Counted from the first letter of the stretch, positions 2,809-4,978 are shown. The stretch: DNA of 4,978 nucleotides from a virus (IMGVR_UViG_2671180417_000017:1-4978), one strand, 5' to 3'. Translations and numbers: made by a program. Notes: a model not told the origin generated them from the sequence alone.

Positions 2809-2859
2809 TGCTGCGGGTGCTTGAGGCTGTCTGCCTCGGGCATGCCACCGTAAGGCAGA

Positions 2860-2936
2860 CAGAGAAAAGCCCCAGTTAACATTACGCGTCCTGCAAGACG
2901 CCTAACATTAATCTGAGGCCAATTTCATGCTAGACA
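2860..2936 (-). ncRNA. sok: putative Sok-like antisense RNA of the hok locus (boundaries approximate)
   Basis: On the - strand, -35 TTGCCT (plus 2965-2970) and -10 TAACCT (plus 2942-2947) with a 17-bp spacer would start an antisense transcript near 2935 covering the mok SD/start (2915-2929). An imperfect hairpin (about 2881-2906) follows but has no clean U-tract, so the 3' end is uncertain. Confidence 0.3.
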
Positions 2937-3139
2937 CATGTAGGTTAGCCTCTTACGCGCCGAAAGGCAAGGAGAAGCAGGCTATGAAGCAGCAAAAGGC
3001 GATGTTAGTCGCCCTGATCGTCATCTGTATTACCGTCATTGTGACGGCACTGGTAACGAGGAAAGACCTCTGCGAGGTACGAATCCGAACCGGCCAGACG
3101 GAGGTCACTGTCTTCACAGCTTACGAACCTGAGGAGTAA
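2927..3139 (+). CDS. mok: Mok-like N-terminally extended reading frame (70 aa) in frame with hok
   Basis: ATG 2927 with GAGG (2915-2918) 8 nt upstream. N-terminus MLDTCRLAS... resembles chromosomal MokC (MLNTCR...) from memory. Same frame and stop as hok. Confidence 0.5.
   Translation: MLDTCRLASYAPKGKEKQAMKQQKAMLVALIVICITVIVTALVTRKDLCEVRIRTGQTEVTVFTAYEPEE
2984..3139 (+). CDS. hok: Hok/Gef-family type I toxin (51 aa), HokD/RelF-like
   Basis: ATG 2984 with AAGGAG (2969-2974) 9 nt upstream. Protein MKQQKAMLVALIVICITVIVTALVTRKDLCEVRIRTGQTEVTVFTAYEPEE is near-identical to my recollection of E. coli HokD/HokC: TM helix followed by the conserved RKDLCEV...TEV..F.AYE periplasmic tail. TAA 3137-3139. 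Confidence 0.9.
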   Translation: MKQQKAMLVALIVICITVIVTALVTRKDLCEVRIRTGQTEVTVFTAYEPEE

Positions 3140-3207
3140 GAGACCAGGCGAGGGAGAAATCCCTCGCCACCTCTGATGTGTCAGGCATCCTCAACGCACC
3201 CGCACTT

Positions 3208-3229
3208 AACCCGCTTCGGCGGGTTTTTT
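3208..3229 (+). terminator. rho-independent terminator of hok mRNA (stem CCCGC, loop TTCG, stem GCGGG, then T6)
   Basis: AACCCGCTTCGGCGGGTTTTTT read directly: GC-rich stem, tetraloop, U-tract. Confidence 0.8.
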
Positions 3230-3348: not shown

Positions 3349-3528
3349 ATGAGCTACGCACTAAAAAAACACCCGCGATTGACTATTCCCCCTCGCGATA
3401 AAAGCGTTGTGGCAGCTCCGCGCCCGGCTATCGATGAAAATTGCACTCATCGTGAGCAGGTGAAAAATGCTTTCGATTTCGGTTTTTCTCGTTACGAGAA
3501 GGCAATGGAAGAACTTTCAAAAGTGTAA
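3349..3528 (+). CDS. putative antitoxin partner of the Doc-family toxin (59 aa; not Phd/YefM-like)
   Basis: ATG 3349 with AAGGG (3335-3339) upstream; the ORF track begins the frame at TTG 3304. Stop TAA 3526-3528 lies 18 nt before the Doc ATG, the usual antitoxin-then-toxin arrangement. Sequence MSYALKKHPRLTIPPRDKSVVAAPRPAIDENCTHREQVKNAFDFGFSRYEKAMEELSKV matches no antitoxin family I recognise. Confidence 0.6.
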   Translation: MSYALKKHPRLTIPPRDKSVVAAPRPAIDENCTHREQVKNAFDFGFSRYEKAMEELSKV

Positions 3529-3546: not shown

Positions 3547-4032
3547 ATGGCTGAGATTGTTGAAGGAGTGCACTACCTTTCGTTTGATGATCTTACCGAA
3601 ATTAATCGCCTTTTAATTGAGCTTCAAACACCAGATGAACCTGTTAGTGTGCTGAGTGTTGATAATTTAAGTTCTTCTCAGTCTCGTCCCAGCATGGTTC
3701 GATGGTATGAACAGACTAATGACATGTTTGTACTGGCATCAGTATTGATTGAAAGTCTGATTCAGAATCATCCATTTGCTAATGCAAACAAACGAACAGC
3801 TATGATGGCTGGTTATGTCTTCTTGTTGTTGAATGGCTATGAGTTAACAGCACCAGGCGATGAAATCGTGGAAATGGCAGAGGGACTGGCCTGCAAAACC
3901 TATACTCGAGAAGATCTCGAGAACTGGTTGTGTTATTGGTCTCGTGCGTATGACGGCCGGGAATTATGTAAAACAGGCGCAACTGTTGTTTTGTATGAAA
4001 CTATCAAGCTTAAAATAGAACAGCAAAACTAA
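3547..4032 (+). CDS. doc: Doc/Fic-family toxin (death-on-curing-like, predicted kinase/AMPylase fold), about 161 aa
   Basis: Motif HPFANANKRTA fits the Doc signature H-x-F-x-(D/N)-(A/G)-N-K-R, and the flanking helices (ASVLIESLIQN before, MMAGYVFLLLNGYEL after) parallel P1 Doc. Start is ATG 3547 or in-frame TTG 3538. Stop TAA 4030-4032. Confidence 0.85.
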   Translation: MAEIVEGVHYLSFDDLTEINRLLIELQTPDEPVSVLSVDNLSSSQSRPSMVRWYEQTNDMFVLASVLIESLIQNHPFANANKRTAMMAGYVFLLLNGYELTAPGDEIVEMAEGLACKTYTREDLENWLCYWSRAYDGRELCKTGATVVLYETIKLKIEQQN

Positions 4033-4048
4033 AGGTGCTTCTAATGAA

Positions 4049-4068
4049 AACCCGCTTCGGCGGGTTTT
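4049..4068. terminator. bidirectional rho-independent terminator (A-tract, CCCGC TTCG GCGGG, T-tract)
   Basis: GAAAACCCGCTTCGGCGGGTTTTGTTGT: the same 20-mer AACCCGCTTCGGCGGGTTTT as at 3208-3227. Sits between the convergent doc (+) and HTH antitoxin (-) genes, with A-run upstream and T-run downstream. Confidence 0.7.
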
Positions 4069-4082
4069 GTTGTATTGGAGTA

Positions 4083-4400
4083 TCATGATATTACCTGGAT
4101 TCCGTTTTTCTCTACGACTGAAAGAAGGCGAAGAGCGGCACCTCCCGGCCGTTTTACACCACGTTCCCAGTCTGATATCAGGTTTTTACTGACGTTGAGG
4201 TATCTGGCAAAAACAGGTTGAGACAGATGCTCTCGTTCGCGCAGTGCACGGATCCTTTCCGGAGACATTACCGGCGCTGGCTGGAGACAAGTTTCATCGA
4301 ATTCTCGCATAGTCTGTTTCGTTACTGCGCCGATATCATGAAGCGATTCCATCATTTCATGTACGGATGCAAGCGCATCACTGCGGTAATTTTTACTCAT
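4083..4400 (-). CDS. HTH-XRE family antitoxin (HigA-like), 105 aa
   Basis: ATG (plus 4398-4400) with GGAGGT SD (plus 4406-4411 reverse complement) 5 nt upstream; stop TGA (plus 4083-4085). C-terminal HTH LSQPVFARYLNVSKNLISDWERGVKRPGGAALRLL is typical of XRE-type antitoxins. Lies immediately downstream of a RelE-like toxin frame on the same strand. Confidence 0.85.
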   Translation of the reverse strand: MSKNYRSDALASVHEMMESLHDIGAVTKQTMREFDETCLQPAPVMSPERIRALREREHLSQPVFARYLNVSKNLISDWERGVKRPGGAALRLLSVVEKNGIQVIS

Positions 4401-4454
4401 TGGGTACCTCCGTAAACTGACCCTGTAGAATCAGTTGTGCCAGTTGTTCATCTG

Positions 4455-4762
4455 TTAGATTGAGTACGTGAGGAGCCCCTTCCGAAATGCACTTTCCTCA
4501 GTAGCGGTTATATTTTCACGTTCATTTTTTGCGTATGCATATACGAAAAAGGCCCTTGTGCCGACGCGATAGAAAATGATTGTGCGATAACCGCCAGATT
4601 TGCCGCCACCGACTCGTGGCAGACGTTGCTTGATAACGCCGTTACCCAGGTTTGCTGAGATAAGCCCGTTATCAGCCTGTTTAACAATTTCGCGCAGTGA
4701 TTGGTCGGATATTTTGTTTTGCGTGCAAGTCGCTCAAACCAGGCGTTTTTAAAAATGCGCAT
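4455..4762 (-). pseudogene. RelE/ParE-superfamily toxin (DUF1044-like, GGGKSGGYRT motif) disrupted by a 1-nt frameshift in an A4 run
   Basis: Frame A from ATG (plus 4760-4762) encodes MRIFKNAWFERLARK... and ends at TAA plus 4508-4510. The -1 frame from about plus 4721 encodes KISDQSLREIVKQADNGLISANLGNGVIKQRLPRVGGGKSGGYRTIIFYRVGTRAFFVYAYAKNERENITATEESAFRKGLLTYSI, ending at TAA plus 4455-4457. Both pieces look like one conserved toxin; the junction is the TTTT run at plus 4717-4720. Adding one A restores an ORF of about 101 aa. Confidence 0.65.
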
Positions 4763-4784
4763 TTTTTGTTCCGTTATTAATGTA

Positions 4785-4799
4785 TAACACATAGTGTTA
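4785..4799. promoter_or_regulatory. perfect inverted repeat TAACAC-ATA-GTGTTA, candidate operator in the divergent promoter region of the RelE-like/HTH module
   Basis: Read directly; lies 23-37 nt upstream of the toxin ATG on the - strand and overlaps the likely promoter. XRE antitoxin dimers typically bind such dyads. Confidence 0.45.
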
Positions 4800-4829
4800 C
4801 ATTGCGTAGGGATCTGCAATGCCATCAGT

Positions 4830-4859
4830 TTGACAACGTCGCGTGTTCGGGGCTATATT
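4830..4859 (+). promoter_or_regulatory. putative sigma70 promoter (-35 TTGACA, 18-bp spacer, -10 TATATT) reading rightward
   Basis: Consensus -35 TTGACA 4830-4835 and TATATT 4854-4859. Divergent from the - strand TA module. Confidence 0.4.
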
Positions 4860-4920
4860 CCTCACGCGCCAGCAAAACCTGGCGTCGGGATTAGCACCCC
4901 GGATATCGAAACGGTGCATA

Positions 4921-4941
4921 ACCGCGCTGGCGGTTTTTTTA
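4921..4941 (+). terminator. putative rho-independent terminator (ACCGC GCTG GCGGT, then T7)
   Basis: Short GC-rich hairpin followed by TTTTTTT 4934-4940, about 75 nt downstream of the putative promoter. Confidence 0.5.
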
Positions 4942-4978
4942 TGCGCTAAGCACAGTCACATTCGCGATTTATGGCGGG

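Follow-up and report, generated by a model that had tools for sequence, protein, structure and literature searches.

An Escherichia coli prophage copy of the IsrK small RNA and its probable place in an antirepressor RNA switch of the P1 immI type

Introduction

Near the end of a viral DNA of 4,978 nucleotides (IMGVR_UViG_2671180417_000017:1-4978; this whole stretch is called the window below), a promoter is followed by about 75 nucleotides of structured RNA and an intrinsic terminator. What does so short a transcription unit encode, and what does it control? The original prediction, drawn from the sequence alone, took it for a candidate small RNA or an attenuated leader, pointed to an alternative pairing between the first hairpin and the terminator, and saw a likeness to the PR'-tR' (6S RNA) unit. 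Two known systems bear on the answer.

IsrK is a small RNA of the Gifsy-1 prophage of Salmonella (Padalon-Brauch 2008, PMC2330248; Hershko-Shalev 2016, PMC4825925), where experiments showed it to be both an independent terminated RNA and the leader of a downstream operon (PMC4825925). Some of the transcription that starts at the isrK promoter passes the terminator and yields a translationally silent mRNA, and short IsrK supplied in trans raises the translation of anrP 114- to 171-fold across assays (PMC4825925). An inactive 'structure A', in which the C4-like region pairs with the middle of IsrK, was defined by mutations G28A and G31A in the hairpin-2 region of IsrK and by compensatory changes on the C4-like side, and the Gifsy-1 model also needs the translation of orf45, the stop of which overlaps the start of anrP (PMC4825925). 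The stable transcript of ~77 nt, the association with Hfq and the trans-activation of antirepressor translation have been demonstrated for Salmonella Gifsy-1 only.

The other system is the immI operon of phages P1 and P7. Citron and Schuster, in 1990 and 1992, reportedly found that a processed C4 RNA of 77 nt pairs with the sites a2/b2 and blocks icd/ant translation. P1/P7 C4 is released from its precursor by RNase P and 3' processing. The P1 genome record (NC_005856) annotates promoter P1c4/P51b, a1, b1, c4, a2 and b2, with b2 lying over the icd ribosome-binding site, and a passage of PMC8546580 also summarises the C4 mechanism; our account of P1 is based on that annotation, this secondary source and established knowledge.

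Results

Elements of the transcription unit

The promoter, the hairpins and the terminator with its T7 tract that had been described in the original prediction were all recovered, and the unit can be resolved into the following features.

4830..4859, plus strand: sigma-70 promoter, with -35 TTGACA at 4830-4835, an 18-nt spacer and -10 TATATT at 4854-4859
4866..4940, plus strand: IsrK-family small RNA of ~75 nt, corresponding to the a1b1 leader in c4-type immunity modules
4866..4885, plus strand: hairpin 1, 4866-4872 with 4879-4885, 7 bp including one G:U, loop CAAAAC
4886..4901, plus strand: hairpin 2, 4886-4889 with 4898-4901, displaying a1 in its loop
4891-4897, plus strand: site a1, TTAGCAC, in the hairpin-2 loop
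4906..4912, plus strand: site b1, TCGAAAC, in the single-stranded linker
4912..4929, plus strand: candidate weak anti-terminator hairpin (speculative), CGGTGC at 4912-4917 with GCGCTG at 4924-4929
4920..4940, plus strand: intrinsic terminator, AACCGC at 4920-4925, loop GCTG, GCGGTT at 4930-4935, T7 at 4934-4940
4967..4978, plus strand: first 12 nt (ATTTATGGCGGG) of a C4 antisense RNA, the rest of which lies beyond the window end

The promoter agrees with the consensus in 11 of 12 positions and is the top one among five promoter-like sites in the window. Shuffled sequences give 5.4 such sites, hence there is no enrichment above chance, and the promoter gains weight only by its conserved position (see below). 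Transcription would start at about 4866, 7 bases past the -10 element. The minimum free energy (MFE) of the 75-mer is -27.2 kcal/mol (z = -1.5), and 13 of 200 shuffles fold equally well or better. Its MFE fold is near that drawn in the original prediction, with an extra weak 5-bp hairpin in the linker (4904-4908 with 4912-4916) that is not in the earlier list and is absent from the centroid. The candidate anti-terminator hairpin at 4912-4929 shares bases with b1, at the 3' edge of that site, and with the terminator, in its 5' arm. Since the thermodynamics and the promoter count alone are unremarkable, it is the comparative evidence given below that lifts the element above chance.

ARAGORN found no tRNA or tmRNA in the window. 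A ribosome-mediated leader-peptide attenuator was rejected as a candidate: no ATG with a Shine-Dalgarno sequence was seen in 4866-4920, and the overlapping open reading frames start upstream of the promoter, the sole plus-strand ORF of at least 30 aa that overlaps the RNA (4794-4949) beginning upstream of the -35 element and another frame (4802-4894) beginning upstream of the promoter.

The RNA belongs to the IsrK family

An Rfam scan over the whole window, a check proposed with the original prediction, matched isrK (RF01394) to 4866-4940 along the full model (1-77/77) with 74.3 bits against a gathering score of 50 (E = 3.8e-15). The c4-a1b1 family (RF03163) matched 4853-4905 with 47.4 bits, a marginal pass over its gathering score of 46.7. 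A possible second isrK at 3148-3229 was rejected; it scored 31.2 bits, under the gathering score, and consists of a hairpin and a terminator after hok. Aligned to IsrK of Gifsy-1, the RNA is identical in 57 of 78 positions. It has the architecture of RF01394, two hairpins, a linker and a terminator with compensatory changes, the covariation support coming from hairpin 1, and it also has the context of that family, with its own promoter upstream and a C4-like RNA and an anrP-type antirepressor gene downstream. What lies at 4830-4940 is a known small RNA, IsrK, as carried by an E. coli prophage.

Genomic context and the region beyond the window

The last 199 bases of the window (4780-4978) are 100% identical in 13 E. 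coli chromosomes among the matches listed, as well as in phage PhiR12_3, where the identity runs from window position 4478 to the end. Used as a query, these 199 nt (the promoter region, the IsrK-like RNA and 12 nt of C4) have a match in ~497 of 5426 complete E. coli genomes, and ~200-250 phage records, mostly of Shiga-toxin-converting phages, match either this query or a 301-nt leader query. RefSeq has no annotated feature beneath the match in the E. coli chromosomes that carry the element.

The locus of E. coli FORC_069 (L002) was used for reading past the window end. Its coordinates equal those of the window plus 2221; identity was established for 4780-4978, and the fixed-offset comparison fails upstream of this part by indels or divergence. 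The gene order in FORC_069 is DnaC-like gene, DUF1627, DUF977, DUF551, hokD, doc, higA-like and relE-like genes on the minus strand, the element, and then ORF6N-domain gene, ninB, ninE, ant, KilAC antirepressor gene, DUF1364, rusA, ninH and Q. The nearest upstream plus-strand gene is doc, which ends at 4032 and has its own terminator at 4047-4068, and the genes between doc and the element are on the minus strand; the element is therefore not the 3' UTR of an upstream gene, an explanation that the original prediction had named as one that would overturn it.

It had also been suggested that a Q-like antiterminator or late genes might follow downstream of 4978. What follows is a C4 RNA, the antirepressor gene, ninB and ninE, not late genes, and Q lies ~4 kb off, at L002 11226-11660, with an intergenic region of ~770 bp between it and the next annotated gene. 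The C4 RNA (RF01695) was matched to L002 7188-7272, or 4967 to 5051 in window numbering, with 75.1 bits against a gathering score of 45. It begins 26 nt past the terminator, so that the window ends 12 nt into it, and it carries the conserved tRNA-like CCACC(A) 3' tail. The antirepressor gene starts at L002 7326, 54 nt past the C4 end; ORF6N and P22_AR_C domains were recognised in its product, which shares 80% identity with Gifsy-1 AnrP (STM2616) across 144 aligned residues. There is no icd-like ORF at the FORC_069 locus, where the antirepressor gene comes directly after b2 (see below), and isrJ had no match in the 110 nt scanned past the antirepressor gene (Rfam, L002 6900-8100).

C4 is complementary to sites in the leader and in front of the antirepressor gene

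Two segments of C4 are exactly complementary to the small RNA: a' (GTGCTAA, in the joining strand) to a1, TTAGCAC, and b' (GTTTCGA, in the loop of C4 hairpin 2) to b1, TCGAAAC. Both 7-mers occur again past C4. Site a2, the same 7-mer as a1, starts 5 nt past the C4 end, and b2, the same 7-mer as b1, starts 36 nt past it and ends 4 nt upstream of the GAGG Shine-Dalgarno sequence of the antirepressor gene, 11 nt upstream of the ATG. A read-through RNA of 259 nt has an MFE of -109.4 kcal/mol (z = -4.4), and in this predicted fold a1-b1 is paired in cis with b'-a'; so modelled, the fold corresponds to the inactive 'structure A' of Gifsy-1.

Twelve loci were compared: the window locus, VT2-Sakai, PhiR12_2_star, Stx2a_JNE121849, phi345, Stx2_14040, phiV10, Enterobacter phage Tyrion, APSE-3, Klebsiella phage 020009, Gifsy-1 and P1. 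All twelve have isrK (c4-a1b1 in P1) and then C4 22-27 nt later. A long antirepressor-type ORF starts 48-55 nt past the C4 end in ten; the next gene after C4 in P1 is the short icd, and the interval past C4 in the unannotated Klebsiella phage 020009 contains no ATG-start ORF of more than 80 codons. A promoter with a TTGAC-type -35 and a TATA(T/G)T-type -10 element is found at the same distance upstream in 10/12 loci, and P1c4/P51b is annotated at the equivalent position of P1 (NC_005856).

The a-site exists in eight types among these loci (TTAGCAC, TTGGCGT, TTTGCAC, TTGCTAC, TTCGCAT, TTGGTCT, TTGGAAC and TTGACAG), and a1, a2 and the complement of a' are in exact agreement in every one of the twelve. 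Cognate and non-cognate combinations were compared by the longest Watson-Crick run across the 12 loci, with the following results.

a' with a1: cognate run 7 in 12/12 loci, non-cognate mean 3.6
a' with a2: cognate run 7.1, non-cognate mean 3.6
b' with b1: cognate run 6.7, non-cognate mean 3.9
b' with b2: cognate run 7.8, non-cognate mean 4.4

Non-cognate runs at the a-site reach 7 (8 against a2 of phiV10) only between loci that share an a-type, and by duplex energy the cognate partner of each C4 is the most stable or nearly so. This three-way covariation of a1/b1, a'/b' and a2/b2 is strong comparative evidence that the pairings of C4 with a2b2 and with a1b1 are both under selection.

The structural elements of the leader are conserved to different degrees. 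In the 12-sequence alignment, six of the seven pairs of hairpin 1 have changes on both sides with the pairing kept. Hairpin 2 is present in all twelve sequences and varies only from G-C to G-U, with no both-side changes, and is therefore uninformative for covariation. A G+C-rich terminator-like hairpin followed by a T-rich tract is found at the same place in all twelve, likewise with no both-side changes (in P1 it has a longer stem, a large loop and an ATTTTT tail); the RNAalifold consensus recovered just three terminator pairs and no compensatory change. The loop of hairpin 1 has the motif GCAAAAYC in nine of the twelve loci and GCAAATTC, one base different, in P1. No conserved complement of this loop was found within 1.1 kb downstream in the 12 loci.

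Comparison with Gifsy-1, P1, P4 and APSE

The window element is the E. coli counterpart of the isrK-orf45(STnc1160)-anrP locus of Gifsy-1. An Rfam scan of Gifsy-1 gives isrK, C4 and then STM2616, the same order as in the window locus. Each locus encodes a separately promoted RNA of 75-77 nt, made up of two hairpins, a linker and an intrinsic terminator and followed ~25 nt later by a C4-like RNA (the STnc1160/orf45 region) and then by an ORF6N antirepressor, and both share the layout of a1/b1, a'/b' and a2/b2 with b2 abutting the Shine-Dalgarno sequence. The specificities differ, TTAGCAC in the window against TTGGCGT in Gifsy-1 at the a-site and TCGAAAC against TCACCG at the b-site, and so does the position in the prophage, the window element lying in the nin region ~4 kb upstream of Q, whereas isrK of Gifsy-1 is directly downstream of Q. 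A further difference concerns orf45, which has 45 codons in Gifsy-1 (the frame was reproduced), with a conserved AUG at C4 position 5 and an ATGA overlap with anrP. The equivalent frame of the window locus is shorter, at 31 codons, with its stop 38 nt short of the antirepressor ATG. Its length varies among the 12 loci from 14 to 64 codons, two of them have it joined in frame with the antirepressor gene, and the stop/start overlap with the antirepressor gene is confined to Gifsy-1; by this comparison of frames, the upstream ORF is not a conserved part of the module.

The P1/P7 immI operon consists of promoter P51b, a1 b1, c4, a2 b2, icd and ant1/ant2, and is covered in Rfam by RF03163 (c4-a1b1) and RF01695 (C4). 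Element order and spacing in P1 are as in the window: hairpin 1 with its GCAAATTC loop, a1 in the hairpin-2 loop, b1 7 nt later, a terminator-like hairpin, C4, a2 right after C4 and b2 at the ribosome-binding site. C4 of P1 represses antirepressor synthesis, the role that we propose for C4 of the window locus. The P1 leader, however, is under the isrK threshold, with 35.1 bits, and P1 controls ant through the translationally coupled icd, which the window locus lacks. In P1 a C1 operator (Op51) and a further promoter lie upstream, where the window locus has a divergent toxin-antitoxin pair, and the regulated protein is of the ORF6N/P22AR-C type in the window locus as against Ant1/Ant2 in P1.

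APSE phages of Hamiltonella (LR794150; bioRxiv 10.1101/2020.03.17.996009) have isrK, C4 and an antirepressor-like (Bro-N) gene as in the window locus, although host clade and phage type are other and the sites are TTCGCAT (a) and CTAAACAGG (b); the isrK and C4 pair is already annotated in GenBank APSE records. The same module is thus found in P1, in phiV10 and Tyrion (Uetakevirus) and in APSE phages. The immunity system of P4 (CI RNA, seqA, seqC) also has a processed antisense RNA inside its own operon leader, between two target copies, and the authors of the Gifsy-1 work regard IsrK as a structural homologue of P4 seqA (PMC4825925). CI of P4 acts by premature transcription termination and controls replication genes; this comparison with the window module is by description, not by sequence.

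The element is already known, since IsrK is a curated Rfam family, earlier work on P1/P7 and Gifsy-1 described the module, and isrK with C4 is annotated in APSE. An inventory drawn up with Rfam for E. coli O157:H7 EDL933 includes IsrK too. The observation made in the original prediction was accurate and its general interpretation good.

Discussion

A decoy model for the leader RNA

We consider it very probable that the element is the promoter-proximal a1b1 part of a P1 immI-type antirepressor RNA switch that acts by a C4 decoy mechanism. Transcription from the promoter at 4830-4859 would start at about 4866, and most transcripts would stop at the T7 terminator, giving a 75-nt RNA that displays a1 in the hairpin-2 loop and b1 in the linker. 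Transcripts that read through would carry C4 from window position 4967, then a2, b2 at the Shine-Dalgarno sequence and, last, the antirepressor gene. Pairing of a'/b' of C4 with a2/b2 would occlude the antirepressor ribosome-binding site and prevent translation, whereas a1/b1, as mimics of the target, would sequester a'/b' in cis within the read-through transcript. Free IsrK would compete for a'/b' in trans and turn antirepressor translation on, and the ratio of terminated to read-through RNA would set the state of the switch and tune antirepressor synthesis and prophage induction. What the analysis shows is family membership, gene order, and the three-way complementarity with its covariation; production of these RNAs at the window locus, partial termination and competition of IsrK for C4 are inferred. 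The simplest reading at this locus is that the antirepressor ribosome-binding site is occluded directly.

Several points complicate the model. When STnc1160, the C4-like region, was co-expressed constitutively with IsrK in Gifsy-1, the IsrK-mediated growth arrest became stronger instead of weaker (PMC4825925), and because a decoy does not predict this outcome, the simple decoy model fits it poorly. The orf45 step of the Gifsy-1 mechanism may not transfer to the window locus, since the frame here is of 31 codons and lacks the overlap, and is variable across loci. The window locus also lacks icd, the coupled gene by which P1 controls ant. The strongly conserved loop of hairpin 1 has no part in the decoy model.

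Alternative explanations

The terminator may have a regulatory role beyond that given to it by the decoy model. In a feedback loop of the P4 type, a1/b1 would serve mainly as landing sites for C4 on the nascent transcript, and C4 paired at b1 would disrupt the anti-terminator (4912-4917/4924-4929) and cause termination at 4920-4940, and it would thereby limit the synthesis of its own RNA and of the antirepressor mRNA, as CI of P4 does at seqA/seqC. We regard this as possible though improbable; it is compatible with the decoy explanation, and the authors of the Gifsy-1 work, noting the similarity to P4 seqA, raised feedback termination as a possibility (PMC4825925). When the 3' arm of the terminator is withheld, an anti-terminator-like hairpin forms beside b1 in 12/12 loci (-7.4 kcal/mol in the window), each time more stable than the mean of shuffled linkers, and the hairpin at 4912-4929 was independently listed by a terminator scan. 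The fraction of shuffles at or below the observed energy is, however, 0.05-0.34 per locus, which is weak and suggestive only; the loci are related, so that the combined signal is no probability; the hairpins have merely 3-6 G+C-rich pairs; and RNAalifold does not predict them. The modelled hairpin at 4912-4929 could be a weak anti-terminator that is disrupted by C4 at b1, and it remains just a lead because the loci are related and the stems short. A wider proposal, which we hold to be doubtful and somewhat less likely again, is that the terminator is a C4-responsive attenuator, the a/b 7-mers form a combinatorial immunity code and the hairpin-1 loop is the site of a common partner. If this were true, a single RNA would serve as a mimic of the target and as a sensor of antisense RNA level, and an a/b code of at least eight a-types would be common to lambdoid, P1-like, Uetakevirus and APSE phages.

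Three other explanations were considered. In one, the RNA is a self-contained attenuator, in which GCTGGCGG of the terminator is the alternative partner of the hairpin-1 5' arm (4866-4872), so that the 75 nt could adopt only one of two folds at a time, terminator or anti-terminator. This alternative pairing, put forward in the original prediction, is present here (4867-4872/4927-4932, 6 bp, -10.8 kcal/mol), and the fold forced to contain it has -24.6 kcal/mol, only 2.6 above the MFE of -27.2, but the same duplex has only -2.5 to -6.3 kcal/mol in the 11 homologues, and as a conserved switch it was rejected for this weakness. The compensatory changes that keep six of seven pairs of hairpin 1 are contrary to such a switch, and hairpin 1 forms first during transcription and has no evident opener; we consider a self-contained attenuator very unlikely. 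The alternative pairing that conservation backs is that of a1/b1 with the downstream C4. Of the two functions originally suggested, that of a small RNA and that of a leader both stand, the homologue in Gifsy-1 being an independent terminated RNA and an operon leader at once, while attenuation confined to the 75 nt does not. No more credible is a unit of the lambda PR'-tR' (6S RNA) type, a constitutive late promoter with a terminated transcript that is extended by Q antitermination. The layout of promoter, short RNA and terminator does resemble PR'-tR', isrK of Gifsy-1 is directly downstream of the Q gene, and IsrK is described in one paper as coming from an antitermination-regulated promoter. 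The analogy is nevertheless a misfit because Q is ~4 kb downstream: the window element is in the nin region, Q has its own intergenic region of ~770 bp after it, and the gene that follows the element is the ORF6N/P22AR-C antirepressor gene, succeeded by ninB and ninE instead of late genes. The occurrence of the module in P1, phiV10, Tyrion and APSE phages also argues against it; to our knowledge, P1, the Uetakevirus phages phiV10 and Tyrion, and APSE phages lack a lambda-type Q.

A mainly trans-acting, Hfq-dependent small RNA that regulates mRNAs of the host core genome, its link to the antirepressor being secondary, is unlikely, if less so than either of the latter two. The Rfam description of the isrK family includes 'Hfq binding', and the GCAAAAYC loop (9/12 loci; GCAAATTC in P1), for which the local operon offers no complement, might serve as a seed or be bound by a protein. 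We know of no host target for IsrK. Locus by locus, a1 and b1 track the linked C4 and leader, a pattern to be expected if the module is self-contained but not if the RNA regulates conserved host genes, and the growth arrest caused by IsrK in Gifsy-1 required the chromosomal isrK locus (PMC4825925). The decoy mechanism, in which the leader RNA competes for the C4 of its own operon, is the reading that we retain.

Significance

As a discovery the element is of small value, the family being curated and the module described in P1/P7 and Gifsy-1; its value is in annotation, RefSeq having no feature at this place in the E. coli chromosomes that carry it, though about 497 of 5426 genomes match. Because it gates an antirepressor, the module is likely to have an effect on prophage induction and in this way, in Stx phages, could affect the release of toxin. 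As far as predicted pairing goes, the covariation of the a and b sites from locus to locus shows that many mutually non-cross-reacting a/b specificities coexist, which bears on the cross-talk of prophages in strains that carry several of them.

Conserved sequences in or next to C4 and IsrK

The antisense RNA C4 is followed, about 15-18 nt from its 3' end, by a conserved GGTGGYGA (within 7263-7296 of the FORC_069 chromosome locus L002, corresponding to 5042-5075 in window numbering and lying beyond the window; equivalent positions in the homologous loci L003-L013). This motif and the 3' strand of C4's outer stem, which at this locus reads TCGCCACC, are complementary. P1 has another, partly complementary pair of sequences at these places, CTGCCACC with GGTAGCAG, as judged by eye and without counting base pairs. 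Pairing of GGTGGYGA with the outer stem would present a2, the second copy of the C4 target site, in a hairpin loop, and it would compete with the mature C4 fold.

C4 also carries an AUG at its position 5 in all 12 loci. The frames that start there (L002 7193-7288, from window position 4972, at this locus) vary widely, from 14 to 64 codons, or in L005 and L011 run on in frame into the antirepressor gene. The published orf45, with its ATGA overlap to the Gifsy-1 antirepressor gene anrP, is found among the 12 loci only in Gifsy-1.

The loop of hairpin 1 of IsrK (window 4872-4880; same position in L003-L013) is GCAAAAYC, identical in nine of the 12 loci, including those of the APSE phages. The P1 version, GCAAATTC, differs from it by one base, and L005 and L011 have TATAAAAC/TATAAAGC. 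No conserved complement to this loop was found within 1.1 kb downstream.

Toxin-antitoxin genes upstream of IsrK

Features of the region upstream of IsrK (window coordinates)
2815-3139: hok/sok type I toxin-antitoxin locus (Rfam sok match and hok ORF)
3349-3528: small ORF, 5' of the Doc/Fic toxin ORF
ends at 4032: Doc/Fic death-on-curing toxin ORF, after the small ORF
4047-4068: bidirectional terminator, common to the doc side and the convergent HigA-like gene
4083-4400, minus strand: HigA-like gene, convergent with doc

The Rfam scan matched sok (RF01794) at 2815-2989 with 116.9 bits, and the hok ORF occupies 2984-3139, its counterpart in the matching E. coli chromosome being annotated as hokD. 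The intergenic DNA ahead of sok contains a perfect 22-nt palindrome, CGATATGGGAATTCCCATATCG (2747-2768). An isrK-like match at 3148-3229 was rejected as a second member of the family, since it scored 31.2 bits against a gathering score of 50 and coincides with a hairpin and strong terminator directly 3' of hok, which most likely form the 3' terminus of the hok transcript.

The RelE/ParE-family toxin gene that precedes the HigA-like antitoxin gene (4392-4765, minus strand) is broken across two reading frames, with MRIFKNAWFERLARK in one and the remainder, KISDQSLREIVKQADNG..., in another. A frameshift has probably made it a pseudogene. The RefSeq annotation of FORC_069 gives a shortened version of this toxin.

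On one side of the inverted repeat TAACAC-ATA-GTGTTA (4785-4799) is the promoter region of the divergent toxin-antitoxin pair, and on the other the IsrK promoter's -35 element. Possibly an antitoxin operator, the repeat might link the toxin-antitoxin and IsrK units.
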